A DNA stretch of 53,318 bases from a virus (Duplodnaviria > Caudoviricetes), in the IMG/VR virus record IMGVR_UViG_3300043803_001519, positions 1-53,318 of that record, one strand, 5' to 3'. Positions 1-16,074 of this stretch are shown here, in pieces. The notes below the pieces were generated by a model. It was given only the letters and a program-made list of their open reading frames with translations, ran no database searches and had not been told where the DNA came from. Position 1 is the first letter of the stretch. Each line of letters begins with the position of its first letter. The position numbers and the translations under genes were made by a program.

Positions 1-1
1 A

Positions 2-773: not shown

Positions 774-862
774 AGGCCATCGGCGGCATCCTGTGGGGGC
801 TCTTGCTCTCCACTATCATCATCACATTCTTGAGCGCACTCGCGAGGATTCTCATCTCGTGA
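770..862 (+). CDS. 30-aa hydrophobic peptide (MKAIGGILWGLLLSTIIITFLSALARILIS)
   Basis: Not in the ORF track. It fills the gap exactly, with an ATGA overlap and GAGG upstream; the next gene starts 2 nt after its stop. Confidence 0.55.
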   Translation: MKAIGGILWGLLLSTIIITFLSALARILIS

Positions 863-864
863 CC

Positions 865-1107: not shown

Positions 1108-1328
1108 ACGCCGACAACTACGTCTACGTCGACGAGAGCGGGCCAGCCATTGCGGTCTACGCAGCCAGCGGGGAGGTCCCGGCTCGCGTGTTCGTCGTCG
1201 GGGAAGAGAACCGCCAGTACGAGCAAGACCAGGTCTTCGAGGACATCCACGATGCCCGCCGCTATGCCGAGCGTTATGCCGCCGCCCTGGCGACCACGCT
1301 CGGTTGCGACTGGGGCACTAACTACTAG
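1104..1328 (+). CDS. Hypothetical acidic protein
   Basis: 74-aa ORF coupled to the upstream gene. Confidence 0.65.
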   Translation: MNADNYVYVDESGPAIAVYAASGEVPARVFVVGEENRQYEQDQVFEDIHDARRYAERYAAALATTLGCDWGTNY

Positions 1329-1481
1329 GAACCGCTCGCGCGCCCGGAGGGCTCCGGGATAAGCCCCGAACGAGCAGAGTGACTACTGAAGGTTCGCGAA
1401 CGGCGTGTCCCAGTCACGTCCGTAAGCCCTCTGGCCCGGAGGTGACTTAGTCACAGGGCAACCACATCACAAGGAGGCTTC

Positions 1482-1910
1482 ATGACCCAGCGCGACCCCA
1501 ACGGCATCAGCCAGCACGCGCCAGGCGCCAAACTCGACGCCGGCAAGACCCCGATCGTCAAGGGCCTCCTGGCCCAGTTCCCGCACGCCTGTACCGAAGT
1601 CGCCGAGATCTCCGCCTACGGCGCCCAGAAGTACACCTGGGGCGGCTGGCGCTCCGTGCCCGACGCGAACACGCGCTACCTCGACGCTCTTGGTCGGCAC
1701 CTCATCATGTACCTCTGCGGCGAAGACCTCGACCGCGAGTCGCAGCGCATGCACCTGGCCCACATGGCCTGGAATGCGCTTGCCGTACTCGAGCTCAGCC
1801 TCACTGAGATCGAAGAAGCCTACATTCCGGCCACTGCCCCCGACAAGATCGTCACTCAACTCGACGACAGTTGGGAGATCGTCAAGGCCACCGAGTTCCA
1901 CAACGAGTAA
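1482..1910 (+). CDS. dATP/dGTP diphosphohydrolase-domain protein (DUF5664-like)
   Basis: Motifs GAKLDAGK, YGAQKY..GGW, RYLDALGRH and DRES..HLAHMAWNAL; strong AAGGAGG RBS. Confidence 0.85.
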   Translation: MTQRDPNGISQHAPGAKLDAGKTPIVKGLLAQFPHACTEVAEISAYGAQKYTWGGWRSVPDANTRYLDALGRHLIMYLCGEDLDRESQRMHLAHMAWNALAVLELSLTEIEEAYIPATAPDKIVTQLDDSWEIVKATEFHNE

Positions 1911-1920
1911 GGAGTCCCTC

Positions 1921-2340
1921 ATGGGAGACCGTGCCCTCATCCAGTTCGTCAGTTGGCCTTCTTCCGACCCCAGCCTCATCAAGAAACGGTGCGAGGTCCA
2001 GGACGGCAGCTACAGTCCCGTCGTCTACCTCCACTGGATGGGGGAAGACGTTCCTCGCCTTCTCTCGGCGCTGCAGACCCTCATGGGGGACCGCCAGGGC
2101 GACGTCGACTACACCGCCGCCCGTTGTATCGGGCTTGCCTGCCAAAAGACTCCCGGCAACCTGAGCGTAGGTGTTTTCAACTCAGGCAACCGCGTCTGGT
2201 GGGGCCAGGGCGACACCCACGGCGACGCCGGCGTCATCCTCGTGAACGTTCACCCCAACCACTGGTTCGAGACCCACTGCGAGGGCGGCTACATGACCCC
2301 CGAGCTCATCAAGGAGGGCATTGTCCATGGTATCGCTTGA
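1921..2340 (+). CDS. Conserved phage hypothetical protein (MGDRA...VYLHW type)
   Basis: ATG at 1921 after TAAGGAG; SPVVYLHWMG and GDAGV motifs. Confidence 0.7.
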   Translation: MGDRALIQFVSWPSSDPSLIKKRCEVQDGSYSPVVYLHWMGEDVPRLLSALQTLMGDRQGDVDYTAARCIGLACQKTPGNLSVGVFNSGNRVWWGQGDTHGDAGVILVNVHPNHWFETHCEGGYMTPELIKEGIVHGIA

Positions 2341-2752
2341 GCCCAACCTGCCCACGATGCTCATTGCCGCCATGCGGAAGTACGGCATCGCCCGCATCGA
2401 AGTCGAGTACAGCGGCTACGGCGACAGCGGCCAGATCGATTACGTCTACTTCTACGGCACCGGCGGCAAGGACTTCGATGCTACCGGCCTCACGGTCCCC
2501 GGCTACCAGAAGAATTACGACTGGCAGACCAAAGATTACATCGTCCACAAGGAGGACTACCTTACCGAGCTTGCCCAGGACGTCGTCTGGTATTGGCTCG
2601 AAGAGGCCCACGGCGGCTGGGAAATCGACGAGGGCTCCGACGGCAAGTACGCGCTCACCCTCGACGAGAACGTTCTTGCCGTCGCTAACACGCACAACAA
2701 CCACTTTACCCAGACCGACACGGAAGAGTCCGATTTCGAGGTGACGCCATGA
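2327..2752 (+). CDS. DUF6878-like acidic protein
   Basis: IEVEYSGYGDSGQID and GGWEIDEGSDG motifs; AAGGAGG RBS. Confidence 0.65.
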   Translation: MVSLEPNLPTMLIAAMRKYGIARIEVEYSGYGDSGQIDYVYFYGTGGKDFDATGLTVPGYQKNYDWQTKDYIVHKEDYLTELAQDVVWYWLEEAHGGWEIDEGSDGKYALTLDENVLAVANTHNNHFTQTDTEESDFEVTP

Positions 2753-3966
2753 TCAGCTTCACGACGCCTGGTCTCATCGACATGCGGGCGTTCACGCACT
2801 TCGGTGTGAACGCCAAGGAGAACACCAACCCCATCGGCTACTTCGGCACCGGCCTCAAGTACGCCCTGGCGGTCCTGGCCCGGCACGACGCCCGCGTTAC
2901 CATCAACCGCGGCGGCCAGGATTACACGCTCCGCGTCCGCCCCGGCAACATGCGCGGCAAGGAGTTCTCGTTCATCGACCTCGTCAGCGGCGACGAGGTC
3001 ATCGAGTTGCCGTTCACCACTGAGCTCGGCAAGAACTGGGAGCTCTGGATGGCGTTCCGGGAGCTCTACTCGAACACCCTCGACGAGAACGGCATGGTTC
3101 TCGAAAAGATGCCGAGTGTTGACGAGTCCAACGTGACGGTCATCGTCGTCGACCACCCCGAGTTCGATGCGATCTGGGCCGAGAAGGGCGAGTACTTCCT
3201 TGATACGAAGGGTCGCACTCCGCTCGCCAGACTCAAGGATATCGAGATCTACCGCCGTTGCACTGCTCAAGGCGCCATCTTCATGCAGGGGATCCGCGTC
3301 GGCACCACCGACGGCGACTCCCTCTTCACCTACAACCTCACGAAGAACAAGCGTCTTACCGAAGATCGCGCGCTCGCCGACGACTCGGCTTTCCGTATGA
3401 CCATCGTCGGCCAGCTCCGCGAACTCGATAGCACGCACGAGAAGTTTCTTCGTGAGATCCTCGTCGCCCCTTCGCGGAGCTATGAGGGCCGACTTGATCA
3501 CCGCTTCGGCCTCAACTACGACAAGGCGACAGACTTCTACAATGGCTTCGTCTCCAACCTCGTTCGTGATCGCGTTGCGGGCCTCAACCCGACCCTGGCG
3601 GGCTACGTCAGGCTCTACAACATCGATGGCGGGGTCGCCCCTGACGAGGTCCAGCCCAGCGAGCTCGATACCAGGCGGCTCACCAAGGCCATCTCTTTCT
3701 GCAAGTCCCTCGGCTTCCTGGTCGACAAGTACCCCATCAGGGTTTTTGCCCCGGGGGACTCCAGTCTGCTTGGCATGGCCATCGACGGCCAGATCTGGGT
3801 CTCGGCCCAGAGTTTCCGCCAGGGCACCAAGAACCTGGCCGGTACCCTGATCGAGGAGTACATCCACCTCGAGCATGGGCTCCAGGACGAGACCCGCGGC
3901 CTGCAGAACTTCCTGGTCGACACCGTCGTCTCCTTCGGTGAGCGCATCATCGGGGAGCCCCTGTGA
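2749..3966 (+). CDS. GHKL/HATPase-like ATP-binding protein with C-terminal zincin-like segment
   Basis: N-terminal FGVNAK...IGYFGTGLKYA glycine loop and later WMAFRELYSNTLDE; C-terminal TLIEEYIHLEHG. Confidence 0.65.
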   Translation: MISFTTPGLIDMRAFTHFGVNAKENTNPIGYFGTGLKYALAVLARHDARVTINRGGQDYTLRVRPGNMRGKEFSFIDLVSGDEVIELPFTTELGKNWELWMAFRELYSNTLDENGMVLEKMPSVDESNVTVIVVDHPEFDAIWAEKGEYFLDTKGRTPLARLKDIEIYRRCTAQGAIFMQGIRVGTTDGDSLFTYNLTKNKRLTEDRALADDSAFRMTIVGQLRELDSTHEKFLREILVAPSRSYEGRLDHRFGLNYDKATDFYNGFVSNLVRDRVAGLNPTLAGYVRLYNIDGGVAPDEVQPSELDTRRLTKAISFCKSLGFLVDKYPIRVFAPGDSSLLGMAIDGQIWVSAQSFRQGTKNLAGTLIEEYIHLEHGLQDETRGLQNFLVDTVVSFGERIIGEPL

Positions 3967-4163
3967 AAGAAAGCGTGGAGGCCGTCACCCTTCGGTTGCG
4001 CCAGGAAGGCCGCACCGACGACTACATCGCGTCTTACCTGAGAGGCTACTTCTCCGATGCCCTCTTCGCGCCGCCTTCTCGCCCCCCACCGGCCTCCAAG
4101 GTTTCACGCAAGAAAGGCTCGGCTGCGGAAGGCCGGGATACTGATCCGGGTCTTCCGGGTTAG
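3963..4163 (+). CDS. Hypothetical protein
   Basis: GTGA overlap with the upstream gene and GGGAG upstream. The region has competing frames. Confidence 0.45.
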   Translation: MKESVEAVTLRLRQEGRTDDYIASYLRGYFSDALFAPPSRPPPASKVSRKKGSAAEGRDTDPGLPG

Positions 4164-4336
4164 CCGCTACGAGATCTTCGTCCACGGTGTCCTGGTCGTC
4201 TCCCGGCTGCACCGTATCCCCCACCACAAGGTGGAGTCACTTCGTCCGGTCGTGATCCTCTGGGGCAAGGCGCTCCAGGAGGCCGAGCGCATTCATGCCC
4301 TACTTCGGCAGTGGCACAACATCAACAGGGGTATGT

Positions 4337-4579
4337 ATGGTGCTGTTACGTGGAAAGTACCTCGTTCTGGCTGCCGAGCTGACGGCGCTTATTGCGCTAC
4401 AGGTGGTCTATCTGGTAAAACGCCGGCGCAAGAAGCCGCGCGGGGGGACTGCCCATTCTGTCAACGGGCAGCCGGTCGTCTCCGCGCAATCGCTGAACTC
4501 CCAGTCGCCCCGCCGGTCCGAGGAGCCCGAATTCCGTTATACGCCTCCGCCTGCGGCAGCCCCGCCTACGACTGAGTAG
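4337..4579 (+). CDS. Possible small membrane protein
   Basis: ATG after AGGGGT; hydrophobic YLVLAAELTALIALQVVYLV followed by KRRRKK. Overlaps the alternative ORF 4057-4575. Confidence 0.35.
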   Translation: MVLLRGKYLVLAAELTALIALQVVYLVKRRRKKPRGGTAHSVNGQPVVSAQSLNSQSPRRSEEPEFRYTPPPAAAPPTTE

Positions 4580-4662
4580 GGTGGATCGCCTGTGAGAACC
4601 AACCCGAACATCCTTCCTGGCACAGGGCCAGGGCCGGGACTTGCCTTCCAGAAAGACAAGGG

Positions 4663-7020
4663 ATGAGATTCGATTTTCTCTCGGCGGCCCTGCCGCTGAC
4701 CAAGGCCTTCAACCTGCGTGACGACGGGACCTACGAGTCCCAGGCCTACCCGCTGGTCCGGAACATGACTTCGACCTCGGTCGAGGCCGCCGGTCCTGCG
4801 GAGCTGCTCCAGGCGATCCAGGAACACGGCGCCTCCGGCAACTGTCTGCTCAAGGGGCTCCTCAAGGACCCCATCAGCAACCAGTCCCGGGCCGGCATGA
4901 CCGACCCTCGGACACCTACTCACTGGATCGTCTTTGACCTCGACCGGATCGCCGGCGCCTTCGCCAGCGCCGAGGCGTTCATTGCCGCCCTGCCTCCGGC
5001 GTTCCACGACGTCACCTACATCCACCAGTACTCGGCGTCCTACGGCATTACCAAGACCACCTACCGGGCCCATCTCTTCTTCCTCCTGGCCCGTCCTGTC
5101 TCGCCGCTTGTCCTCAAGGAGTGGTTCGCCGGGCTCTGCTACCACACTGAGCCACTGCGTCACTTGGTCACGTTGAGCACGAACAACCTCGCGCTCAGCC
5201 TGCCGGTCGACCACACCGTGGCCCAGAACGACAAGCTGATCTACATCGCTCCGCCCGACTGCCGCAACTTCACTGACCCCGTCACCGAGCGGCTGTCCCT
5301 CGTGGCCAAGGGCGCTGACTTCGTCCAGTACGACTTCCCCGCCCTGGTCCCGTCGCTCTCCGCGGCCCACGACGAGCTCCTCGCCGAGCTGCGCGAGAAG
5401 GCGGGGCTCCCGGCGCGCAAGCCGAAGCTTAAGCTCCTGAACGGCGAGGAAGTCCTGACGAACCCGGACGGCGTAGTCGTCACCGACATCAAGGAGCAGA
5501 ACGGCTACATCCGCCTCAACCTCAACGGTGGCGACTCCTGGGCCTACTTCTTCGACCCGGAGAACCCGCGCCTCGTCAAGAACTTCAAGGGGGAGCCGAA
5601 CCTGCTCCTGACCGACATCGCCCCGGACCTGTACCGCAAGGCGCGCGACATGATGCCGGCGCCGACCAAGAAGACCTCGTACGTCTTCCGTGACCCGGCG
5701 TCCGATCAGTGGTACGCCGGCGTCTACGACCCGTACCTCCGGGCCTGGGAGCTGCTGGCTCCCATCGGCAGCTACGAGAAGATCAAGGCGTTCTTCGCCA
5801 CCCGCGGCGGCATTGCCCCGGACGCCGAGCAGATCCCGGACTGGGACTACGAGTTCCGCCCGTACGAAGACGAGGTCTGCGACCCGCCGCGGAAGTTCGT
5901 CAACCGCTTCCAGCCGACTGACTTCATGCGGCTCGCTCCCAGGAACAACACTTTGCCGGCAACTGCCGCCAAGATCCTCAAGAGCGTCGTCGGCGGGGAC
6001 GAAATCGTCATGGACGCCCTCATCAACTGGCTCGCGTGCATCTTCCAGTACCGCACCAAGATCGGCACGGCCTGGGTCCTGTCCGGCGTCCAGGGCACCG
6101 GCAAGGGCCTGCTGATCCACGAGCTGCTGCGCCCGCTTTTCGGCCCTACCTGCGTGGCCAAGCAGCTCCACCACTTCTCGGACCAGTTCAACGCCTTCCT
6201 CGAGACGTCCCTCATCGTCAACGTCGACGAGGTGCGGCTCGACTCCTCCCGCGGCGAGTCGGCCAAGCTCCTGGCCATGGTGAAGAACCTCATCACCGAG
6301 CCTACGGTCGACATCCGGTCGATGCGCCAGAACAGCCGCCAGGCCAAGTCGTACTCGAACTTCATCTTCACGTCGAACGACTACGACGCGATGCGCATCG
6401 ACCGCACCGACCGCCGCTTCAACATCGCGCCGCGCCAGGAGACCCCGATCTCCGTCACCCAGGCCGAGGTCGACGCCCTCAAGCTCGAGCTCTTTGACTT
6501 CGCCGGGTTCCTTGCTTCCTACCCGGCGGACCTCGACCGGGCCCGGCGCCCCATCGAGACGGAGGCCAAGGAAATCATGCGCAAGCACGGGCTCGACAGC
6601 GTCGAGCAGCTCGTCGACGCCGTCCTCGGCGGCGACCTGTCCTTCGTCATCCGCATGCTCTCCTTCGGGATGGACTTCCGCGAGTCCGGCGTCTGGGTCG
6701 AGGTCGACAAGGTCGTCCGCAGATGGGCCGAGGCTGCCAACACCGGCAAGGTGTGCGTCATCCGCCGCCGCGATCTCTACATGCTGTACCGCTACGGCTA
6801 CGACGCGAACGCGAAGCCGCAGAGGTTCAACCGCATGCTCGAACACAAGAACTTCCCGCCCGTCAGCCAGTGGCTCGACGAGCTGTCTGGCCGCTACGTG
6901 CTGGGCACCGTCACGGTGTGGAAGTGCGATCCCGAAGTCCTGCAGGAGTACGCCAGCTCGAAGGAAGAGGACACCAAGCCTGCCACCATCGTCCAGTTTC
7001 CCCGCGCTGCATCCGAATGA
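4663..7020 (+). CDS. Primase(-polymerase)/SF3 helicase fusion
   Basis: AEP-like motifs WIVFDLD, QYSAS and RAHLFF; Walker A SGVQGTGKG, Walker B VNVDE, motif C FIFTSN, DRTDRRF. Confidence 0.85.
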   Translation: MRFDFLSAALPLTKAFNLRDDGTYESQAYPLVRNMTSTSVEAAGPAELLQAIQEHGASGNCLLKGLLKDPISNQSRAGMTDPRTPTHWIVFDLDRIAGAFASAEAFIAALPPAFHDVTYIHQYSASYGITKTTYRAHLFFLLARPVSPLVLKEWFAGLCYHTEPLRHLVTLSTNNLALSLPVDHTVAQNDKLIYIAPPDCRNFTDPVTERLSLVAKGADFVQYDFPALVPSLSAAHDELLAELREKAGLPARKPKLKLLNGEEVLTNPDGVVVTDIKEQNGYIRLNLNGGDSWAYFFDPENPRLVKNFKGEPNLLLTDIAPDLYRKARDMMPAPTKKTSYVFRDPASDQWYAGVYDPYLRAWELLAPIGSYEKIKAFFATRGGIAPDAEQIPDWDYEFRPYEDEVCDPPRKFVNRFQPTDFMRLAPRNNTLPATAAKILKSVVGGDEIVMDALINWLACIFQYRTKIGTAWVLSGVQGTGKGLLIHELLRPLFGPTCVAKQLHHFSDQFNAFLETSLIVNVDEVRLDSSRGESAKLLAMVKNLITEPTVDIRSMRQNSRQAKSYSNFIFTSNDYDAMRIDRTDRRFNIAPRQETPISVTQAEVDALKLELFDFAGFLASYPADLDRARRPIETEAKEIMRKHGLDSVEQLVDAVLGGDLSFVIRMLSFGMDFRESGVWVEVDKVVRRWAEAANTGKVCVIRRRDLYMLYRYGYDANAKPQRFNRMLEHKNFPPVSQWLDELSGRYVLGTVTVWKCDPEVLQEYASSKEEDTKPATIVQFPRAASE

Positions 7021-7403
7021 CCCCCGTTGAGCCAGAGACCAACCTCATCCAGCTCGCCGCTTCCGGCGACCACCCAGTCGTGGACATGTCCGTCTACTGC
7101 ACTTCCGTGATCTACGGATCGTGCGTGATGGTCACACCCCAGGCCACGGCCGCTACGATTCGCGAGCGCCGCGACTCGCTACTCACCAGCATGTCAGCGG
7201 CAATCTCGCACGCACTCAACGACACCAAGGGCGAGATCATATCGATCTCGTTCAAGCACAGCGTCAAGTACGGCCGCGCCAAGGACGCTCGCGCCGTGCG
7301 CGACGTCGTCGCGTACCCACGCCACAAGCACGGCACCGGCAAGCCTTACGTCCTGCTCTGCGAGCCAGGCTGGCTGCCCGATGACGGGGAGGTAATCCAT
7401 TGA
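7017..7403 (+). CDS. Hypothetical protein
   Basis: ATGA overlap with the primase stop and TTGA overlap with the next gene. Confidence 0.6.
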   Translation: MTPVEPETNLIQLAASGDHPVVDMSVYCTSVIYGSCVMVTPQATAATIRERRDSLLTSMSAAISHALNDTKGEIISISFKHSVKYGRAKDARAVRDVVAYPRHKHGTGKPYVLLCEPGWLPDDGEVIH

Positions 7404-8107
7404 TCACTGCATGGTCCTGGTCGCGGCTCGAGGTCTTCGAGAAATGCCCTTACCAGGCGTACCTGAAGTTCTACGAGAAGCGCCCGGAGCCCGAGAATCC
7501 CAGGCGCGACGCCGCGCTTTCTCGCGGCACCCTGTTGCACGAGGCCGCCGAGGCCTACATCCGCGGCGAGCTCAAAGACGCCGACATGTCGCCCTTCAAG
7601 CGGGTGATGGCTGATCTGGACAAGAGCCGGGACCTGTTCGCCCAGGGCAGGGCCCGCGTGGAAGAGGAGTGGGCATTCGATGTCGAGTGGCAGCGTACAG
7701 AGTGGTCAGCTCCAACTACCTGGCTTCGAGTCAAGACCGACGTGTGCCAGGAACCCACTGACGACCTCACCGTCGGCGAGGTCATCGACTGGAAGTCCGG
7801 CAAGAAGGAAGGCAACGAGATCAAGCACATCCAGCAGGGGCAGCTCTATGCAGCAACTGCCTTTGTTTGGCAGCCCCAGTACGACGTAGTCTCGGTAAAG
7901 TTCCGCTACGTCGACCACAGCGAGAAGCTCGACCGCACTTACACGCGCGCCCAGGGCGCCCAGTTCCTCGATGCCTTCACCAAGCGCGCCAAGCGCATGA
8001 CCGAGGCCGAGGTCTTCCCGGCGAAGCCGAACAAGATCAACTGCAAGTACTGCCCCTACGGGGTAGCGAACGGAGACGGGTCGTGCCTGCACGCAGCAGT
8101 ACCTTGA
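7400..8107 (+). CDS. PD-(D/E)XK exonuclease, Cas4/RecB/AddB-like with Fe-S cysteines
   Basis: WSWSRL..FEKCP, RGTLLHEAAE, KTD...VIDWKSGK, QGQLYA, CKYCPY...C. Confidence 0.85.
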   Translation: MITAWSWSRLEVFEKCPYQAYLKFYEKRPEPENPRRDAALSRGTLLHEAAEAYIRGELKDADMSPFKRVMADLDKSRDLFAQGRARVEEEWAFDVEWQRTEWSAPTTWLRVKTDVCQEPTDDLTVGEVIDWKSGKKEGNEIKHIQQGQLYAATAFVWQPQYDVVSVKFRYVDHSEKLDRTYTRAQGAQFLDAFTKRAKRMTEAEVFPAKPNKINCKYCPYGVANGDGSCLHAAVP

Positions 8108-8358
8108 CCAAGGAAGCGGCCATTGAGATTCTTGCTGGCGTTGCCGCCGAGCAAGTCACTGAGCTCGTTCTCTTTGATCACGACGACTCCGAACTGCTCG
8201 CTTTTCTATACCACCTCATGTACGACTCCTACACCGACGAAGAGGCTGTCGCCCACGCCAACGACATCCTCGAGTCCCGACTCGATTCCATCGACGAACC
8301 GGAGCGCGATCTTGAGCTCGATTCCACCTCTCTTCTCCCACCAACAGGAGACGATTAG
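8104..8358 (+). CDS. Small, very acidic protein
   Basis: TTG start overlaps the nuclease stop. 84 aa, about 23 D/E against 3 K/R (hand count). Confidence 0.55.
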   Translation: MTKEAAIEILAGVAAEQVTELVLFDHDDSELLAFLYHLMYDSYTDEEAVAHANDILESRLDSIDEPERDLELDSTSLLPPTGDD

Positions 8359-9688
8359 TCTCCTCCGGTCTTCGCCCCGGGTGTTCGACATGTCGGACCC
8401 CGGCACCGGTAAGACCCGCGCCGCCATCGAAGCCTTCGCCGAGCGGCGGCGCAACGGCGGCGGCAAAGCCTTGGTCCTCGCCCCGAAGTCGATCCTCCAG
8501 GCTGCCTGGGGCAACGACATCGACCGCTTCGCGCCTGGCATCTCCTACATGTGTTGCTACGCGCGCAACCGCGAACAGGCCTTCAAGCTCGACGTCGACG
8601 CCTACATCACCAACCACGACGCCGTTTCCGGCCTCGACAAGCTCCTGCCAGCGAGCTACTGGCGAGACTTCGACACGCTCATCATCGACGAGTCGACGGC
8701 CTTCAAGCACAACGGTTCGCAGCGGTCCAAGGCCGCCCGCAAGCTCGCTACCCGGTTCCAGTACCGTGAGCTCATGACTGGTACCCCGAACCCCAACAGC
8801 GTCACTGAGCTATGGCACCAGGCGTTCCTGCTCGACGACGGCGAACGGCTCGGCAAGTCGTTTTACAAGTTCCGCAACATGGTCTGCGAGCCGACCCAAG
8901 TTGGCCCTGCAGCCAACCACCTCAAATGGGCCGACAAGGAAGGTATCGAGCAGGCCGTCTACGCGCTGATCCAGGATATTTCGATCCGGCACAAGTTCGA
9001 GGACTGCGTCGACATCCCGCCGAATCACACCTACTCGGTCTACGTCGACCTGCCCCCCAAGACACGAAAGCTCTACAACACGCTGCTCGAACAGACCGTG
9101 CTCGAGTTGGACAGCGGCGCCATCACGCCCATCTCGGCATCTGCCGTCGCCACCAAGCTGGCCCAGATCGCCGCCGGGGCTGTCTACGTCAACGACGCCG
9201 CCGAGGTCATCGACGACACCCGCACCGAGGTCATCATGGATCTCGTCGACGCCCGCCAGAGTGTCGTCGTGCCCTTCATCTGGAAGCACCAGCGCGACAT
9301 GCTGACCAAGGCAGCGGAGGAGCGGGGCTTCACCTTCTCGTCGATCGACGGCGACGCCAGCGATCGCGAGCGCGCCAGCGCTGTCGCCGCCTTCCAGGCC
9401 GGCGACCTCCGGGTTCTCTTCATCCACCCGCAGTCCGCCGGCCACGGGCTCACGCTGACTCGCGGCACTGCCACGATCTTCGCAAGCCCGACCTACAACG
9501 CGGAGCACTACAAGCAGGTCTTCCACCGGATCTACCGTACCGGCCAGACCCAGCGCACCGAGACCATCCACATCATCGCCCGCGATACCATCGATGAGGT
9601 CATCTACGACCGCCTCGACGGCAAGCTAACGGCCATGCAGCTACTGCTGGCCTTGGCCGAGGCGAATCAGCGACAGGAGGCTGCGTGA
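8312..9688 (+). CDS. SNF2-family (DEAD/H-like) helicase
   Basis: Q motif FSHQQE, Walker A DPGTGKT, IIDES, MTGTP, SAGHGLTL, QVFHRIYRTGQ. Likely TTG start at 8312 after GGAG. Confidence 0.9.
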   Translation: MSSIPPLFSHQQETISLLRSSPRVFDMSDPGTGKTRAAIEAFAERRRNGGGKALVLAPKSILQAAWGNDIDRFAPGISYMCCYARNREQAFKLDVDAYITNHDAVSGLDKLLPASYWRDFDTLIIDESTAFKHNGSQRSKAARKLATRFQYRELMTGTPNPNSVTELWHQAFLLDDGERLGKSFYKFRNMVCEPTQVGPAANHLKWADKEGIEQAVYALIQDISIRHKFEDCVDIPPNHTYSVYVDLPPKTRKLYNTLLEQTVLELDSGAITPISASAVATKLAQIAAGAVYVNDAAEVIDDTRTEVIMDLVDARQSVVVPFIWKHQRDMLTKAAEERGFTFSSIDGDASDRERASAVAAFQAGDLRVLFIHPQSAGHGLTLTRGTATIFASPTYNAEHYKQVFHRIYRTGQTQRTETIHIIARDTIDEVIYDRLDGKLTAMQLLLALAEANQRQEAA

Positions 9689-9885
9689 TAGCGCTCGACG
9701 ACAGCTACTTAGGGTGGCGGGTCGAAGCCGTCGATTCTTTCGGCGAGAAGCGCCGCTTCTACGTCAGCAAATCAATGGGTCGGATCCCGGTCTTCCTTGA
9801 GCTCAAGACCCGGCGCTCGCTCGGCGGCTACGCGGCCTGCTACGAGTATCAATCCATCACCCGTCTCTACAGGAGGGACGAATGA
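9685..9885 (+). CDS. Hypothetical protein
   Basis: AGGAGG RBS, coupled overlaps on both sides. Confidence 0.6.
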   Translation: MIALDDSYLGWRVEAVDSFGEKRRFYVSKSMGRIPVFLELKTRRSLGGYAACYEYQSITRLYRRDE

Positions 9886-10298
9886 AGACTGACACCGCAA
9901 CCCTGCCCCCGCCTGTCGAGAACAGGCAGCCCCTCGCCCTGGGCGAGATCATCGCCCGGATGCTCGAGCTCCGGGACGCCAAGCGCGCCCTCGAGGCCCA
10001 GGTCAAGGACATCAACGAGGAGTTCTCCACCCTGGAGGCCCACCTCATCGTTGCCCTCGACGAGCAGGAGAGTACGACCGTCGCCACCAAGCAGGGGACT
10101 GCCAGCATCACCGAGACGGTGGTCCCACAGATCGTCGACTGGGACGCGTTCGAGAACTACGTGATCATGAACGGTGCCCTGCACCTCCTCCAGCGCCGCC
10201 CCGCCACGGCGGCCTTCCGGGAGCTGCAGGAAGCCGGAGAAGCGGTCCCTGGCCTCGAGCCGTTCACCAAGAGGGCGATTTCACTCCGTGCCAAGTAA
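9882..10298 (+). CDS. Conserved phage replication-module protein (coiled coil + VDWDAF...LLQRR...VPG)
   Basis: AGGAGG RBS. The motif is typical of small proteins found beside phage SNF2/SSB genes. Confidence 0.7.
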   Translation: MKTDTATLPPPVENRQPLALGEIIARMLELRDAKRALEAQVKDINEEFSTLEAHLIVALDEQESTTVATKQGTASITETVVPQIVDWDAFENYVIMNGALHLLQRRPATAAFRELQEAGEAVPGLEPFTKRAISLRAK

Positions 10299-10310
10299 CG
10301 AGGTAACAAC

Positions 10311-10994
10311 GTGACAGCCAAGACCAACCTCCCCGCCAACATCGAGGCCCAGCTCAAGGCCCAGATGGAGGCCCTCCGCAGCCAGCTCCAGGCCCCCTCC
10401 AGCAACAAGATCTCGACCAGGGGCAAGATCTTCACGCTCCCCGACGGCAAGTCGAGCCCAGGCCCTCTCCGGGTCATCGTCGTCGACTTCGCCTGGGCGC
10501 TGGTCCACTACAAGGGCATCTACAGCGCCGCCCAGCCCCAGGGCCCGGACTGCTGGGCTCTCGGCCGGGACAACCCCGACTCGGGCAACCTGGTCCCCAG
10601 CCCGACCATCGTCAAGCCCTACGCGACCTCCTGCAACAAGTGCCCCAAGAACCAGTGGAAGAGTGATCCGCAGGGTAAGGGCAAGGCGTGCAAGAACCAG
10701 CGCCGGCTCATCGTGGTCGGGGCCGACGCCAACAAGGACAGCGAGCCGCTGACCCTGTACGTCTCGCCCGGCGCCCTCAAGAACTTCGACGGCTACGTCG
10801 CCAGCCTCGCCTCGACCCACGGGCTCCTGCCCATCCAGGTCGTCACCGAGGTCAGCTTCGACGCCAACCAGGCGTACCCGTCGCTGAAGTTCTCGATGGT
10901 CGAGAAGCACGCCCGGCTCGAGGAGATGTTCGCCCTCAAGGCGAAGGCCGAAGAGATGCTCTTCCGGCCGCTGGAGACCCGCGAGGCTGCGTGA
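10311..10994 (+). CDS. Putative ssDNA-binding/annealing protein with Zn-binding cysteines
   Basis: PDCW...SCNKCPKNQW...GKGKACKNQRRL, and position in the replication module. Function is inferred. Confidence 0.55.
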   Translation: MTAKTNLPANIEAQLKAQMEALRSQLQAPSSNKISTRGKIFTLPDGKSSPGPLRVIVVDFAWALVHYKGIYSAAQPQGPDCWALGRDNPDSGNLVPSPTIVKPYATSCNKCPKNQWKSDPQGKGKACKNQRRLIVVGADANKDSEPLTLYVSPGALKNFDGYVASLASTHGLLPIQVVTEVSFDANQAYPSLKFSMVEKHARLEEMFALKAKAEEMLFRPLETREAA

Positions 10995-11422
10995 ACGAGG
11001 CCGGCTTCCTGACTAGTCTCAGGACGTCAGTAGCGAATCGCTGCTACTGGCTCAAGACGAACTTGCCGTTTGCCCGCGGCATCGCGGACCTGTGGCTGTC
11101 AGGAAGCCGGTCAGACTTCTGGCTCGAGGCGAAGTTCGCCCCGAAGCTGAGCCCGGCCACCGACCTCACCGACCATCGCTACTGGCTCACCAAGCCACAA
11201 CAGCACTGGCTCCTCGCCAGGCATCGCGAAGGTCGCCAGGTCGGTGTCCTCTTCGCCTCCGTCGCGGGGCCCAGGACCTACCATGCGATCCTGCTGCCGG
11301 GCGACGCCTGGCGGGATCCTATCCCCCGGGAGGGGTTCGCCGAGAAAGCCATGCCGGTCAAGGACTTGGCCGACTATCTGGTCCGTGTCGTTGGACACAG
11401 TGGGGAACTGCCACTATCCTAG
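10991..11422 (+). CDS. VRR-NUC/Holliday-junction resolvase-like PD-(D/E)XK nuclease
   Basis: MNEAGF, GIADLW, FWLEAK, LTKPQQHWL; GTG start at 10991. Confidence 0.75.
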   Translation: MNEAGFLTSLRTSVANRCYWLKTNLPFARGIADLWLSGSRSDFWLEAKFAPKLSPATDLTDHRYWLTKPQQHWLLARHREGRQVGVLFASVAGPRTYHAILLPGDAWRDPIPREGFAEKAMPVKDLADYLVRVVGHSGELPLS

Positions 11423-11455
11423 CGGGCGCTCCCACTTCGTCCAAAGGAGGGACGT

Positions 11456-12019
11456 GTGGCTTCTCCCATCGAGACCGCGCTCAGCGTCGGCATCGCGACG
11501 CTCTACACCCACCCCGACAACCTCGAAGGACACCGCCTCGGACTGCTGATCACCTACAAGCAGTGTCCGTGCAAGATCGTCACCGTCACCACCGAGGGCC
11601 CTCCAGAGGGCTTCGCCGTCGTCAACCCAGGCAACTACGTCCCCTTCTTCGTCGACCGCAATCTCGCCCTCTGGTCCCCTGACGCCATCGAGCAGTACCT
11701 CGAGGAACGCTTCCCGCATCCCACGCTGCTCCCCGTCGACCCCAAGCTCCGCGCCCAGCTCCGCCAGATGAGCTACGAGTTCCGGAGCTGGTACCCCATC
11801 CAGCACGACCGCTTCGCCCTTGGGGCGCTCCATGAGTTCGCTGAGATCCTCGGCGACGGTCCCTGGGTCACCGGTAACACCCGGACTACTGCCGATCTCG
11901 CTGCCTTCCCGTTCCTCTGGCGCTGGCGCACCCTTCTCAGGGAAGCCGGCCCGGCAGTCTGCCGGTACTTCACGCGGTCCGCTCCCCTCGGGGCTGCCGC
12001 AGCCGAAGCGGAGACGTGA
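11456..12019 (+). CDS. sspA: Stringent starvation protein A homologue (GST fold)
   Basis: NPGNYVPFFVDRNLALW...EQYLEERFPHPTLLPVDP aligns by eye with E. coli SspA NPNQSVPTLVDRELTLW...MEYLDERFPHPPLMPVYP. AAAGGAGG RBS. Confidence 0.85.
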   Translation: MASPIETALSVGIATLYTHPDNLEGHRLGLLITYKQCPCKIVTVTTEGPPEGFAVVNPGNYVPFFVDRNLALWSPDAIEQYLEERFPHPTLLPVDPKLRAQLRQMSYEFRSWYPIQHDRFALGALHEFAEILGDGPWVTGNTRTTADLAAFPFLWRWRTLLREAGPAVCRYFTRSAPLGAAAAEAET

Positions 12020-12022
12020 AGC

Positions 12023-12361
12023 ATGGTCAACCGGGTCAGCACGAAGATCGGCCCTGACGGCAAACGTCTCCCCGCCGGCATCTGGTGGGACGCCAAGAAG
12101 AACCGCTACCGCGTCCGACTCTACAAGAACCGCGTCAGCCACCTCTGCGGCTACTTCAAGACCTTCCACCAGGCTACCAAGGCCCTCCAGGAGCTCAAGG
12201 TTCGCTTGAGCCACATCCCCGCCGTCCGGCGCCGCAAGCGGATGCGGGTAGGGCAGTACAACACCGCCCCCACGCACGAGGCGACCCTCGGCGGGCTGGC
12301 CAGGTCAATCCGTGAGCACCAGCTCATCGATCCCCTGGTGATGCAGCGAAAGGAGTTATGA
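12023..12361 (+). CDS. AP2-like DNA-binding protein
   Basis: LPAGIWWDAKKNRYRVRLYKNRVSHLCGYFKTFHQA matches the AP2 pattern G-V-x-W...W/Y-R-A/V...LG-x-F-x-T. Basic protein. Confidence 0.65.
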   Translation: MVNRVSTKIGPDGKRLPAGIWWDAKKNRYRVRLYKNRVSHLCGYFKTFHQATKALQELKVRLSHIPAVRRRKRMRVGQYNTAPTHEATLGGLARSIREHQLIDPLVMQRKEL

Positions 12362-12558
12362 CCCACAGCTACTTTGTTGGCTACGAGGTCGTGCCTCTGC
12401 GTGAAGTCGATGACAGCTACGCCGTAGTAGCGGACGACGACACAGCAGATTTCTGGAGCCTCTACGGAGTGCTCCCTGGCGGCAAGCGAGTCTGCATAGG
12501 CGACTATTCAGACCAGCATGAAGCCAACTCCGTCAGGGATCTCCTGACCAACTCGTAG
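12358..12558 (+). CDS. Hypothetical acidic protein
   Basis: AAAGGAG RBS and ATGA overlap. Confidence 0.65.
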   Translation: MTHSYFVGYEVVPLREVDDSYAVVADDDTADFWSLYGVLPGGKRVCIGDYSDQHEANSVRDLLTNS

Positions 12559-12573
12559 CTACATCACCCCCTT

Positions 12574-12617
12574 GCGAAGGCCTCGACTGGGCAACTGGTC
12601 GGGGCCTTCGCTTTTTT
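12574..12617 (+). terminator. Rho-independent terminator
   Basis: GCGAAGGCCTCGACTGG-GCAA-CTGGTCGGGGCCTTCGC stem-loop followed by TTTTTT. Confidence 0.85.
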
Positions 12618-12628
12618 GAAAGGAACGA

Positions 12629-13330
12629 ATGCTTGTCTACTCAGGTCCTTCCCGACTCACCGGTGATCCTGTCGTTGTACTTGCGACTGGTCTCGACCGC
12701 CCAAGCGCCAACCGAAAGACTGGGCCAATGGTCCAGACCTGGATCCTTCGAGCTGACATGGAACCCCGCGAAGCGATCAATCGATCTCACGATGACGCGG
12801 TGTGTGGCTCCTGCCCCGCTCGCGGAACCTGGTGCTATGCCTCGATTGGTCATTCGGGAGCTGCGCTGTCTGGGATCTATCGAGCTTTCCGCGACGGTCG
12901 CTACAGCCCTTATTCTCTCGACGCCTTCCGAGGCCGCGCTGTCCGGTTTGGTGCCTACGGGGATCCTGCCGCCGCCCCCGTCTCTGTCTGGAGAGATCTT
13001 GCCGGCGTAGCCCGGATGCACACCGGCTACACCCACCAGTGGCGTACCTGTGACCAGGCGCTCAAGGACTACTGCATGGCGAGCGTCGACTCCCACGAGG
13101 AGTACGTGCTCGCCAAGTCCATGGGCTGGCGCTGCTTTCGTGTCGTCGAGTCCTTTGACCAGAAGGTCAAGAACGAAGTCATCTGCCCGAACACCAGCAC
13201 CGGCATCACTTGTGCCGAGTGCGGGGCTTGCGATGGAGCCGGGCGCAAGCTCAAGGGCGACATCGTCATCGAGGTCCACGGCACCTCGGCCAAGAAGTTC
13301 GCCACCGCCCAGGCCACCGTGGCGGCGTAG
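12629..13330 (+). CDS. Cys-rich conserved phage protein (gp88/DUF7227-like, possibly Fe-S)
   Basis: NRKTGPMVQTWIL, CGSCP...WCYA, VRFGAYGDP, TGYTHQW, MASVDS, CP...TCAECGAC. Confidence 0.65.
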   Translation: MLVYSGPSRLTGDPVVVLATGLDRPSANRKTGPMVQTWILRADMEPREAINRSHDDAVCGSCPARGTWCYASIGHSGAALSGIYRAFRDGRYSPYSLDAFRGRAVRFGAYGDPAAAPVSVWRDLAGVARMHTGYTHQWRTCDQALKDYCMASVDSHEEYVLAKSMGWRCFRVVESFDQKVKNEVICPNTSTGITCAECGACDGAGRKLKGDIVIEVHGTSAKKFATAQATVAA

Positions 13331-13442
13331 TAACGGGGCCAGTCCGGGCGCGGAATTTCCTCCATGGACCTTTCGCCGCGTGACCGGATCGGTGCCCCCG
13401 CAAGGGGGCATCGTCACTTAGCCACTGAGTAACGGAGTGACC

Positions 13443-13661
13443 ATGCCGCGCATCTACGACAGCGCCAGCAACCCCATCGACTTCTGCCATCGCCACTTCC
13501 CGAAGAGCGAAGAGGACGCTTTCGACCTCTACGGCAACGGCGATGACGGTCCTGACGACCGCGGCAACTGCTTCGGTTACGACTGCGAGCATCCCGACTA
13601 CCAGGACAGCCACTATCGCTGTCACGTCTGCAGCTCGCTGCTTACAGCCCAGGACAACTGA
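13443..13661 (+). CDS. Small Cys/His-containing acidic protein
   Basis: GGAG RBS; DFCHRHF and YRCHVC motifs. Confidence 0.65.
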   Translation: MPRIYDSASNPIDFCHRHFPKSEEDAFDLYGNGDDGPDDRGNCFGYDCEHPDYQDSHYRCHVCSSLLTAQDN

Positions 13662-13670
13662 GGAGACCTT

Positions 13671-13937
13671 ATGAAGCTGAACCACACGACGATCTGGAGT
13701 CGGATCGATCGCGGCTGGGATCCGGAGCGCGCCCGCACCACGCCACCCATTCGCCCCAAGGCTGGTCCGTCGCCGAAGGGCATCAAGAAACTTCTCCGGC
13801 AGCTCGGCATCCCGCTGTCGACGTACTACTCACGCCGTCACAAGGGACTCAGTCACGAGCAGGCGATCCGCACTGCCGCGAGCCGCAAAGGTGACTCGAT
13901 CAACGAAGTCATGAAGCGATGGAGGACAGCGGCATGA
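13671..13937 (+). CDS. Small basic DNA-binding protein with two HTH-like repeats
   Basis: TIWSRIDRGWDPERA and STYYSRRHKGLSHEQA repeats; GAGGAG RBS. Confidence 0.6.
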   Translation: MKLNHTTIWSRIDRGWDPERARTTPPIRPKAGPSPKGIKKLLRQLGIPLSTYYSRRHKGLSHEQAIRTAASRKGDSINEVMKRWRTAA

Positions 13938-14167
13938 AGCTCTACTTCGCCGAGTGGAGCAAGTCCGCAAACGTCCCTTGGCAGCACCGCTGGTTCCGCA
14001 CCGAGGATGAAGCGTGGCGATTCATCGACGAGCTTGTCGCCACGAACCAGCTCGACAGGTCCGAGTACAGCTACTTCTCGGTCCTGCCCCACGACATCAA
14101 TATCCCGACCAACTCCTGGATGCTGGTCGATCTGCTCAACCATCTCGAAGCGAGGCCCCCCGCATGA
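13934..14167 (+). CDS. Hypothetical protein
   Basis: GGAGG RBS and ATGA overlaps. Confidence 0.6.
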   Translation: MKLYFAEWSKSANVPWQHRWFRTEDEAWRFIDELVATNQLDRSEYSYFSVLPHDINIPTNSWMLVDLLNHLEARPPA

Positions 14168-14376
14168 CTTCCATGACCATGGATGAGTTCCGCAAGGCCG
14201 TCGACCGGCGCGTCCGCAACATCGCGGCTGTCGGCCTCGACGATCTCCCCGACTTCGACCTCTACAACTACTGGTACGAAGGCATCGAGCCCGACGAGGC
14301 CAAGCTCGTCGCCAACGACGCCGCCATGGACCTCCTCGCCCAGGAAGGCTTCCCGGTAGAGGAGGGCGACTGGTGA
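14164..14376 (+). CDS. Small acidic protein (GLDDLPD motif)
   Basis: ATG at 14164 coupled to the upstream stop; 70 aa, D/E-rich. Confidence 0.65.
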   Translation: MTSMTMDEFRKAVDRRVRNIAAVGLDDLPDFDLYNYWYEGIEPDEAKLVANDAAMDLLAQEGFPVEEGDW

Positions 14377-14600
14377 TTCTCGACACGCCCGAGGGCATCG
14401 CCCGCTACCAGATGGCCGTCCAGCTCGGCGCGATCAAGCTCGAGCTCAAGGGCCTGAAGCACTCACGCGGCAGCGTCGCCGCTGCCGTCAAGCGCCACTA
14501 CGGCTTCAAGGGCAACAAGCAGAAGGTCTATGACCAACTTGCTGCCCTCTACGAGCAAACCTACGGAGAGCCCTTTGCGGCCAGGAGCAGCAGGAAGTGA
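14373..14600 (+). CDS. Small basic hypothetical protein
   Basis: AGGAGG RBS; IKLELKGLKHSRG motif. Confidence 0.65.
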   Translation: MILDTPEGIARYQMAVQLGAIKLELKGLKHSRGSVAAAVKRHYGFKGNKQKVYDQLAALYEQTYGEPFAARSSRK

Positions 14601-14824
14601 TCACCAAGATCCACGTCAACCAGCACGCGATCCGCGCCAACCAAGGCAAGCGCGGCCAGCCCGTCATCACCGTCAAGGACTACCAGCGCAACCGGAAGAC
14701 CGACGAAGCCCGCATCATCGATGCCAACGGCAACGTCGTCGCCCGCATCGTCTACAACCCCGACAAGCCCCTCGACTGCGGCGCAAAGTGCTGGGTCGAG
14801 ACTTCCCTGGAGGTCCGCACATGA
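14597..14824 (+). CDS. Conserved phage hypothetical protein (IHVNQH...KPLDCGAKCWVET)
   Basis: Recognisable small phage-family motif; coupled overlaps. Confidence 0.7.
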   Translation: MITKIHVNQHAIRANQGKRGQPVITVKDYQRNRKTDEARIIDANGNVVARIVYNPDKPLDCGAKCWVETSLEVRT

Positions 14825-15231
14825 TCGCTTCGTTCGACAAGAAGATCGCCGACTCGCTCCTGGCGCAGCTCAAGGGCGCACTCGACCCGCTTCTCAAGGA
14901 GCATTCGCTTAGCCTCACGAAGGCCAACGGCCGGTACGACGACAACGTCCTCAAGGTCAGCCTCGAGCTGTCGGTCGCCGGCGGCAAGAGCCGCCGCGAG
15001 GAACAGGACTACCGTGACTGGGCGCCGCTCTTCGACCTCGACTCGTCCTGGTACGGCCTGCCGTTTGCCTTCGCCGATGGCACCGTCTACAAAATCGCCG
15101 GCATCAAGCCGCGCGCCAAGAAGAACGCCGTTATCATCGCGCGCGTCTCCGACGGCAAGCGGTTTCTCGGTCCGGCCTCCGTGGTCCGCGACTACATCCA
15201 GCGCGAGCTGAGCAAGGGGAAGGCGGCATGA
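14821..15231 (+). CDS. Hypothetical protein
   Basis: ATG at 14821 after GGAGG; YKIAGIKPRAKKNAV...DGKRF. Confidence 0.65.
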   Translation: MIASFDKKIADSLLAQLKGALDPLLKEHSLSLTKANGRYDDNVLKVSLELSVAGGKSRREEQDYRDWAPLFDLDSSWYGLPFAFADGTVYKIAGIKPRAKKNAVIIARVSDGKRFLGPASVVRDYIQRELSKGKAA

Positions 15232-15500
15232 AGCGTCAGGTCATCTTCTCCCGCAACCTCGAGAACTTCCTCTCCGAGCTCACGGCGGAGCTGCACAACG
15301 GCGACGTCTCTGTCGCGTTCGCGTTCAAGCTCTCCGGCGTAGTCAACGTAGCGTTCCCTCGCGGGTCGACAATGCACGGTTCCCAGAACTACGTTCTGGA
15401 CAGCGTCCGCGGTCAGCTTATCGAGCAGCTCAAGGATTCCGACTACGCTTGTTCCGACATCTTCGACGAAGTCGAGGTCCTCGACTCGGAGTATCTATGA
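15228..15500 (+). CDS. Hypothetical protein
   Basis: Coupled ATGA overlaps. Confidence 0.6.
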   Translation: MKRQVIFSRNLENFLSELTAELHNGDVSVAFAFKLSGVVNVAFPRGSTMHGSQNYVLDSVRGQLIEQLKDSDYACSDIFDEVEVLDSEYL

Positions 15501-15790
15501 CCGAGAACATCGAAATCGTCGTGGCCCCGCCACGGAAGGGTCGCGCCAGCTCCTGGTCGACCTTCGAGCGGCGCTATGACCCGATCGTCGACCCGAGCGG
15601 CACGGTCGTTCGCTCCTGGAACGACCCCGCTGTCCTGGCGGCCAGCGTCCGCCAGGTCTGGACCGTCGTCGACGCCGAGGGCCACCTCTACGTGGTCCCC
15701 GGCCTTGCCACGGTCAACTACATCGGCCGGATCATCACTCGAAAGGGGTGGTCCGACGTCGAGCTCACCAACACCGGATACAGGTTCTGA
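15497..15790 (+). CDS. Hypothetical protein
   Basis: ATG at 15497 after GGAG; VWTVVDAEG..YVVPG..VNYIG motif. Confidence 0.65.
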   Translation: MTENIEIVVAPPRKGRASSWSTFERRYDPIVDPSGTVVRSWNDPAVLAASVRQVWTVVDAEGHLYVVPGLATVNYIGRIITRKGWSDVELTNTGYRF

Positions 15791-15792
15791 AC

Positions 15793-16038
15793 ATGAGCAA
15801 GTGCATCACCAAGATCGAACAGTCCCTCATCGCCACGCGCTGGCAGGATCGCGCCGCGTCGCTCGGGCTCAAGAAGGGAACCAAGCGCTACAAAGACGCC
15901 CAATTTCACTTCGTTGCCGGCGCCGCGTCGGCTCTTCACGCGACTGACCCCGAGGCTGGCCCCCAGGACCTCAGTAACCGCGTGCCGGTGGCGTGGGTGA
16001 TCGCCGGCCTGAGTGGTCGTGACCCGTTTGATCTCTGA
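15793..16038 (+). CDS. Hypothetical protein
   Basis: Last + strand gene before the terminator. Confidence 0.6.
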   Translation: MSKCITKIEQSLIATRWQDRAASLGLKKGTKRYKDAQFHFVAGAASALHATDPEAGPQDLSNRVPVAWVIAGLSGRDPFDL

Positions 16039-16042
16039 GACC

Positions 16043-16074
16043 CAGGGGGGCCGAAGCCCCCCTGTTTCTTTTTT
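16043..16074 (+). terminator. Rho-independent terminator ending the early/replication arm
   Basis: CAGGGGGGC-CGAA-GCCCCCCTG perfect hairpin followed by TTTCTTTTTT, at the convergence point. Confidence 0.9.

Follow-up and report, generated by a model that had tools for sequence, protein, structure and literature searches.

A shortened SspA-family protein encoded next to an AP2-like protein in a phage record related to KPP25

The IMG/VR virus record IMGVR_UViG_3300043803_001519 was analysed over its whole length of 53,318 bases (hereafter the window); as a virus genome it is estimated to be about 66% complete. Two adjacent genes on the + strand are the subject of this analysis. The first, at 11456-12019, encodes a short SspA-like protein of 187 amino acids (aa) with a GTG start and a glutathione S-transferase (GST) fold of the non-catalytic type, as assigned from sequence, fold, tree and residue census. 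The second, at 12023-12361, encodes an AP2-like small putative DNA-binding protein of 112 aa with an ATG start, consisting of a core (residues 17-63), a basic linker and a C-terminal tail. Both open reading frames (ORFs) are present as given in a preliminary description of this DNA: the stop codon TGA of the SspA-like gene is located at 12017-12019, and the ATG of the AP2-like gene follows 3 nucleotides (nt) later. The strong ribosome-binding site described for the first gene was also found, namely the Shine-Dalgarno sequence AGGAGG at 11445-11450 (+ strand), read from the sequence 5 nt ahead of the GTG; the sequence GGAG lies 9 nt ahead of the ATG of the AP2-like gene. The GTG start is backed by a homologue with 71% identity, P0002, which has the same N-terminus. 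Judged from sequence comparison and modelling, what is new here is a shortened, phage-borne branch of the SspA family of non-catalytic type, failing the equivalog cutoff of this family and keeping the docking loop for RNA polymerase (RNAP).

Family, fold and contact residues of the SspA-like protein

The Pfam search describes the SspA-like protein as a two-domain GST, with matches to GST_N_3 (1.2e-6, 29.2 bits), GST_C_2 (5e-6, 27.0 bits) and GST_N (25.6 bits), all above the cutoffs. Among NCBIfam models, the SspA equivalog NF007016 ranks first (1.7e-19), followed by maiA (9.5e-10) and FzlA (2.1e-6). Of the ten best distinct sequences of the PDB, with E-values from 2.2e-19 to 9.9e-14, nine bear the name SspA or RegF, and the remaining one is called 'GST related protein'. 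The best class other than SspA is dehydroascorbate reductase (2.8e-7), so that SspA leads every enzyme class by about 12 orders of magnitude; MglA of Francisella is a weak match (5e-5).

The AlphaFold model, obtained from a 61-row alignment, has a predicted local distance difference test (pLDDT) value of 92.7. In the Foldseek search with this model, ranks 1-12 are all occupied by SspA-type chains, and the listed SspA rows have template modelling scores by query of 0.70-0.79; two E. coli RNAP-SspA complexes appear in rows 15 and 24, and the Neisseria homologue in row 19. In the ESM Atlas, the neighbours are Pseudomonadota clusters named 'RNA polymerase-associated protein' and 'SspA family'. The protein is short, with 187 aa against a median of 205 in 30 bacterial rows and 212 in the E. 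coli chain. The designation as an SspA homologue retaining the RFPHP motif is thus borne out, since SspA is the best match by NCBIfam, PDB sequence and fold, and catalytic GSTs are not the best hits. Taken together, the comparisons support the assignment of the 187-aa protein to the SspA family, rather than to catalytic-type GSTs, on a phage.

Residues 12 to about 110 of the query align without gaps to E. coli SspA (7c97 chain I), with an offset of +3. The residues reported for E. coli SspA are R65, R82, F83, P84, H85 and P86 for contacts with sigma70 region 4, where alanine substitutions impaired RNAP binding; F83, P84, Y92 and P93 for contacts with the beta' zinc-binding domain; and R73, E77, Y78, E81, R96, R100, L69, V94, G97 and L101 for the dimer (PMC7515715). 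These positions were surveyed in the window protein, in 30 bacterial SspAs from sspA-sspB operons and in 18 other members of the clade of the window protein.

All six sigma contacts, a set defined in E. coli, are kept in the window protein as R68, R85, F86, P87, H88 and P89, and the same six are invariant in 30/30 bacterial operon SspAs. The codons R85-F86-P87-H88-P89, equivalent to E. coli R82-F83-P84-H85-P86 and forming, by alignment, the contact loop for sigma70 region 4 and the beta' zinc-binding domain, occupy positions 11708-11722 (+ strand). Among the contacts of the beta' zinc-binding domain, P93 is also kept, and Y92 is replaced by Asp, as in 20 of the 30 bacterial SspAs. Five of the ten dimer-interface residues (L69, Y78, E81, R96 and R100) are identical to those of E. 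coli, and G97 is replaced by Ala, as in 29/30 bacterial SspAs.

In GSTs, the nucleophile lies where strand 1 ends and helix 1 begins, a position mapped here through the alignment. Helix 1 of the model begins at residue 23, and the catalytic-equivalent position is occupied by Gly25, without a Ser, Cys or Tyr nucleophile. At this position, Ser was found in 25 and Cys in five of the 30 bacterial SspAs, and Gly in 12 of the 18 clade members. After strand 4, the acidic-Ser pair usual in bacterial SspAs is replaced by S-P in the window protein; cis-Pro is kept. The nucleophile is thus lost, yet the sigma70-docking loop and much of the SspA dimer helix pair are retained. As a separate observation, Cys at the catalytic-equivalent position is present in 5/30 SspAs of sspA-sspB operons, and the protein encoded at 1457-2089 of locus L002 has a glutaredoxin-like CPYC there.

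Phylogenetic position, distribution and phage record

In a full HMMER scan, 924 of 1.84 billion representatives matched at an E-value of 0.001, 163 at 1e-10 and only three, the query itself among them, at 1e-30. The nearest matches are short proteins of 133-210 aa. Each of the ten whose provenance was examined represents a cluster of one member; nine derive from Logan assemblies (one of these is in ENA as well) and one from JGI/IMG.

In a tree of 56 rows, 19 rows form one clade (Shimodaira-Hasegawa-like approximate likelihood ratio test, SH-aLRT, 99; branch length 1.48), and 30/30 operon SspAs are located on the other side. The clade comprises the window protein, three phage-labelled rows, 11 short proteins and four further representatives, and all four phage-labelled rows lie within a nine-row subclade with a support of 98. 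The tree was built by a quick method and contains several long branches, and its inner branching order is unreliable; genomic context was seen for three of the 19 clade members.

In metagenomes, among the matches listed, a bacterial-type sspA is followed by sspB in 74 of 80 loci, and five of the six loci without sspB end within 202 nt after sspA; no close relative of the window protein was found among these matches. In IMG/VR, the scan with an SspA pattern (A2) gave only four loci, all four of which carry sspA-sspB of a host flank; scans with the window protein, P0009 and the clade alignment A7 gave no match, and the scan with the clade alignment A6 gave only two already-known records. In the bacterial genome collection, pattern scans with the two clade alignments A6 and A7 and with the protein itself detected no relative, apart from two partial matches (6e-6 and 1e-5). 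Since the scans of this collection rely on short patterns, they do not prove absence from bacterial genomes. The search against 50,697 phage records gave four GenBank 'phage' matches with 29-35% identity, none of them in KPP25. Three carry the annotation stringent starvation protein A, a Salmonella chromosome record being the source of one, and the fourth lies in an unannotated record.

The SspA-like gene of the window is followed by the AP2-like gene and not by sspB. Recent capture from a host is rejected by the tree, since the clade stands apart from 30/30 operon SspAs. A phylogeny distinguishing a phage clade from a recent capture had been proposed in the preliminary description, and the tree favours an old phage/metagenome clade. 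The separate clade, the lack of a relative in the bacterial genome scans and the finding of only host-flank sspA in IMG/VR point to an old, mobile lineage of the SspA-like gene. By sequence, this is a distinct shortened branch of the SspA family, seen only on records of KPP25-like podophages and on metagenome contigs of unseen context. A full-text literature search found no report of a phage-encoded SspA. The nearest report concerns a phage SspB in Pseudomonas phage pf16 (PMC5587285).

Genes of the + strand occupy positions 1-16,000 of the window and encode a dATP/dGTP diphosphohydrolase-domain protein, a DUF5906/VapE-like primase-helicase, a PD-(D/E)XK nuclease and an SNF2 helicase. Genes of the - strand, of the structural type, occupy positions 16,618-53,233 and encode the major head protein, the portal, the large terminase, an internal virion protein, tail fibre-like proteins and a 2347-aa virion protein. 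The nearest cultured phages are the Pseudomonas phages KPP25 and phiR18 (genus Kochitakasuvirus), with 56.5% identity of the capsid protein to that of KPP25, followed by Acidovorax phage AP1 and Aeromonas phage phiA008; accordingly, the host is likely a proteobacterium. The stretch is carried by lake-water metagenomes: at least half of the sampled words were found in 10 of the 24 listed runs, two of which may be where the DNA came from, and contigs from four lake-water runs have zero differences to the stretch, which is thus reproducible. One of these contigs covers the stretch from end to end and is a possible source of the record, and the other three runs match piecewise. No RNA run is present among the listed sequencing runs that carry the stretch.

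The ORFs tested in this record of about 66% completeness yielded neither a phage RNAP nor a sigma factor, in agreement with the preliminary description, and the phage therefore probably relies on the host RNAP. An N4-like virion RNAP in the 2347-aa protein is unsupported, since this protein has no Pfam or PDB match, and the only PHROG matches are to 'virion structural protein'. This protein is encoded at 23028-30074 (- strand), and the PHROG matches are confined to its C-terminal 350 residues. The large terminase ORF at 45782-48781 (- strand) encodes 998 aa and matches PHROG terminase families at residues 218-422 and 691-980; about 270 residues between these matches and the N-terminal 217 residues are unmatched, and may represent an intein or an inserted domain. 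At 1482-1910 (+ strand), a 142-aa protein with the dATP/dGTP diphosphohydrolase N-terminal domain (PF18909, 3.7e-23) is encoded. This domain is associated with phage pathways of nucleotide-pool control or DNA modification.

The AP2-like protein and gene order in related phages

The match of the AP2-like protein to the Pfam family AP2 (PF00847; E-value 7.9e-4, 20.1 bits, residues 18-53) is below the gathering cutoff of 33.3 bits. PHROG matches are to HNH endonuclease families and cover the AP2 part only, with the best at 2e-6. The model of the protein contains strands 20-23, 28-35 and 38-45 and helix 48-63, with pLDDT of 87-96, and the tail is modelled as helices 89-100 and 104-110, with pLDDT of 47-59. 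The top Foldseek rows are TEM1 AP2 and AtERF1, with a probability of 0.99 and E-values of at least 0.09; the leading rows comprise AP2 domains of plants and Plasmodium and arm-binding domains of integrases, none at an E-value of 0.001 or better. No tblastn match of the AP2-like protein was found in the 50,697 phage records at an E-value of 0.01. The earlier assignment as an AP2-domain protein is thus weaker than that of the SspA-like protein: the modelled three-strand and helix core and the top fold rows agree with it, while the Pfam score and the Foldseek E-values fall short. The tail motif, residues 88-104, encoded at 12284-12334 (+ strand), was recognized by alignment and is helical by low-confidence prediction.

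It had also been considered that the AP2-like gene might be a remnant of an HNH-AP2 endonuclease, which is unsupported: no HNH match was found in the protein or beside it, no HNH was detected by Pfam, and no longer fused relative was found, the latter being weak evidence. The ORF is intact in four lineages, which makes a decaying endonuclease remnant unlikely.

Upstream of the SspA-like gene, at 10994-11422 (+ strand), lies the backbone gene p142, encoding 142 aa, so that the SspA-like gene sits between p142 and the AP2-like gene. No Pfam family was found for p142; its homologues occupy the same position in the related loci L086, L087, L154 and L164 (35-41% identity), and a homologue with 30% identity is present in KPP25. 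With 9/12 matches, a sigma70-like site at 11392-11420 does not exceed the number expected by chance (0.7 per region) and was rejected.

Downstream, the AP2-like gene is followed by orf66 (12358-12558, + strand), encoding 66 aa, the start of which overlaps the stop of the AP2-like gene (ATGA) and which is kept with AP2 in all relatives. The protein is acidic, belongs to no Pfam, PHROG or NCBIfam family, and has viral hypothetical proteins as its nearest clusters in the ESM Atlas. In each of the four lineages its gene comes after AP2, with 33-41% identity (3050-3241 in L086, 4139-4327 in L154 and 4272-4469 in L164). Next comes an intrinsic terminator with a 17-pair stem (11 G-C) and a T-run at 12574-12621 (+ strand; 12574-12611 in the narrower delimitation). 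The location of the gene pair at the end of an operon just before a terminator stands insofar as a strong terminator is near; the coupled orf66, missed in the preliminary description, lies between AP2 and the terminator. As to the placement at the end of the replication operon, the + strand gene block runs on beyond this terminator to a second one at 16043-16064.

The gene downstream of the terminator (12629-13330, + strand) belongs to PHROG 2554 (1.4e-77), with a weak match to DUF7227, and is very widespread, mostly in otherwise unrelated contexts. With this gene as an anchor, 77 IMG/VR loci were collected (34-60% identity), only three of which contain the local backbone SNF2 - p138 - p227 - p142 - ... 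- p233; a scan with an AP2 alignment gave a fourth related record, L164. In L154 and L164, p142 is followed by an SspA-like gene (155 and 161 aa), AP2 (86 and 91 aa), orf66 and p233, and the start of AP2 overlaps the stop of the SspA-like gene by 4 nt. An extra gene of 215 aa, which is not present in the window, is located at 4351-4998 of L154 between orf66 and the p233 homologue. In L086 and L087, p142 is followed directly by AP2 (71 aa), orf66 and p233. The SspA-like gene is absent at an E-value of 0.01 from all 50,396 bases of L086 and all 42,028 bases of L087, records with a completeness of 59% and 66%, respectively. The three backbone proteins compared do not differ between L086 and L087, which are counted as one lineage. 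In KPP25, p138, p227, p142 and the helicase are present, no SspA-like match was found, and AP2 gave only one 43-residue match on the opposite strand (E-value 0.003), which was taken as chance.

The SspA-like proteins of the three diverged phages have identities of 23-39% (tblastn), and their genes occupy the same slot in each. AP2 is located directly downstream in 3/3 SspA-like genes of known context. Two metagenomic relatives, P0002 and P0154, are an SspA-like protein with 71% identity and an AP2 with 73% identity to those of the window; each is on a single contig of 4816 bases, and from this equal length they probably share the same contig. The co-occurrence of sspA and AP2 that had been proposed as a check was thus found wherever the context of the SspA-like gene is known; it fails in the other direction, AP2 being present without the SspA-like gene in two related records. 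Since AP2 and orf66 occur in L086 and L087 without the SspA-like gene, AP2 is not an obligate partner of the SspA-like protein. Gene order places AP2 and orf66 together in the backbone and marks the SspA-like gene as an accessory, always located just ahead of this pair.

The AP2 tail motif is present in the window, P0154 and L164, partly present in L154, and missing from the 71-aa AP2 of L086; AP2 of L087 is outside the tail alignment and matches at the same identity as that of L086. Loss of the upstream SspA-like gene together with the 3' tail of AP2 would take two separate events. A complex prediction for two copies of the SspA-like protein with AP2 reached a best score of 0.20 against a mark of 0.32 with controls not folded, and counts neither way.

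Possible role at the host RNA polymerase

Restraint of sigma70 promoters in vitro has been reported for E. coli SspA (PMC7515715). From the family, the fold, the contact loop, the loss of the nucleophile, the clade and the fixed slot before AP2, we infer docking of the SspA-like protein on the sigma70 holoenzyme, probably at the same site as bacterial SspA. The protein would be produced from the early/middle + strand operon and would bind the host sigma70 RNAP where SspA binds, namely at sigma region 4 and at the beta' zinc-binding domain. It may then restrain sigma70 promoters, the effect seen in vitro with the E. coli protein, or may act as an RNAP-bound adapter touched by a phage DNA-binding activator. 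The AP2-like protein, encoded 3 nt downstream, is a candidate for such an activator through its C-terminal tail, and this step is the weakest. For a takeover factor docking on RNAP, possibly an adapter for AP2, the chances appear about even. The partnership with AP2 within this scheme is doubtful. It is unlikely, though conceivable, that the two genes form a self-contained viral switch in which the short SspA on sigma70 RNAP and AP2 on phage promoters, joined via the tail, would act without a phage sigma factor or RNAP.

A number of observations weigh against the role of an RNAP-docking factor. The score of the SspA-like protein with NF007016 is 70.1 bits, covering residues 12-117 only, and misses the curated cutoff of 314 bits. 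The protein is about 14 residues shorter than E. coli SspA at the C-terminus and about 13 shorter in the helical hairpin that follows residue 113, and it departs from the E. coli sequence at four of the ten dimer-interface positions (R73D, E77Q, V94K and L101Q). Across the clade, His of the PHP motif is kept in only five of 18 members and the second Pro in 14 of 18, and the other two phage copies, in L154 and L164, read P-G-E instead of PHP. Accordingly, either the sigma contact is not conserved in the clade, or targets differ within the clade; by alignment, the full contact loop is a property of the window protein and of P0002, not of the whole clade. No repeated promoter or operator candidate was found among exact 9-12-mers common to 17 intergenic gaps. 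The lineage of L086 and L087 lacks the SspA-like gene, and in the backbone tree the window, L086/L087, and L154 with L164 form an unresolved three-way split, so that gain and loss of the SspA-like gene are indistinguishable.

The gene order is also compatible with two functionally unrelated neighbours, AP2 and orf66 being a regulator or DNA-binding module of the backbone and the SspA-like gene a moron in a permissive slot. This explanation is a real possibility, held at somewhat below even chances: AP2 and orf66 are intact and coupled in L086 and L087 without the SspA-like gene, and KPP25 has the backbone genes without the SspA-like gene or a credible AP2 match. It is opposed by the insertion at exactly the same slot in three diverged phages, by the 4-nt overlap with the AP2 start in two of them, and by the AP2 tail motif, which tracks the presence of the SspA-like gene, a co-variation resting on very few independent lineages.

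The SspA-like protein could also be an anti-SspA decoy, which, by forming mixed dimers with host SspA, would disable or redirect the SspA-dependent stress and defence programme without acting on RNAP. Dimer helix residues Y81, E84, R99 and R103 are invariant or nearly so in the clade and in bacterial SspAs, heterodimeric pairs of the SspA family are known from MglA-SspA (PDB 5u51, 6wmr), and control of CRISPR adaptation by SspA has been reported in E. coli (PMC11879090). The RNAP-contact loop is intact, however, though a pure decoy would not need it, and with four dimer-interface residues different from E. coli this explanation appears improbable. Equally improbable is a GST-fold protein with another job, a glutathione or redox enzyme or a binder of a target other than RNAP (FtsZ, as for the GST-like FzlA), its likeness to SspA reflecting ancestry: generic GST domains are all that Pfam gives, maiA and FzlA are also listed by NCBIfam, some SspA-family crystals contain glutathione (titles of 4qq7 and 4hoj) and the PHP His is not conserved clade-wide, but the Gly at the catalytic-equivalent position, S-P in place of the acidic-Ser pair, the lead of SspA matches over any enzyme class and the full RNAP-contact set of the window protein all argue against it.

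Returning to the reading of the SspA-like protein as an RNAP-docking factor, it may be compared with several known systems. E. coli SspA (PDB 7C97, 6WMU; NF007016) has the same fold, the R..RFPHP..P loop, cis-Pro and several dimer-helix residues; the window protein differs in its shorter hairpin and C-terminus, Gly in place of Ser or Cys at the start of helix 1, the lack of the partner gene sspB, its separate, long-branched clade, its score of 70 bits against the cutoff of 314 and its location on a phage. Small early phage proteins, T4 AsiA among them, reprogramme the host holoenzyme at sigma70 region 4 or nearby. Their purpose would be the same if the docking holds, whereas their folds are unrelated; compared with them, the window protein would be a borrowed and remodelled host regulator and not a phage invention.

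In phage P1, Lpa (gp10) acts with host SspA on late promoters (PMC1891329). The logic is the same, namely an SspA-family protein on RNAP and a phage DNA-binding activator; however, P1 borrows the host SspA, whereas the phage of the window encodes its own, and no late-promoter motif was found in the window. The AP2-like protein is presumably unrelated to P1 Lpa. In Francisella, the DNA-binding protein PigR contacts MglA-SspA (PMC4382096, PMC1891329). This system likewise includes a diverged second SspA-family protein and a DNA-binding protein, but it is chromosomal, ppGpp-dependent and controls virulence genes, whereas the system of the window is phage-borne. The contact of PigR is presumably made via a C-terminal peptide, as the title of PDB 6WEG indicates. 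The AP2 part resembles that of phage HNH-AP2 homing endonucleases and stand-alone AP2 proteins in its weak Pfam match, its PHROG matches and its modelled three strands and helix; unlike the endonucleases, AP2 of the window has no HNH, is an intact small gene in four lineages, and has a basic linker and sometimes a tail motif.

In proteobacteria, SspA is known as a global regulator of sigma70 and as a host factor that one phage, P1, needs for late transcription. The finding of a remodelled SspA encoded by a phage lineage itself suggests that the docking site on RNAP is exploited by phages actively and not only passively. If binding to RNAP is true, the protein would represent a natural minimal SspA, lacking a catalytic residue and having a short C-domain and an intact loop, for dissecting the action of SspA on the holoenzyme. 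If the partnership with AP2 is true, the two genes would represent a compact activator module and give a first function to a widespread, as yet unassigned class of small phage DNA-binding proteins. The self-contained switch, if true, would be the first viral branch of SspA and would for the first time assign a role to the stand-alone AP2 proteins of phages.

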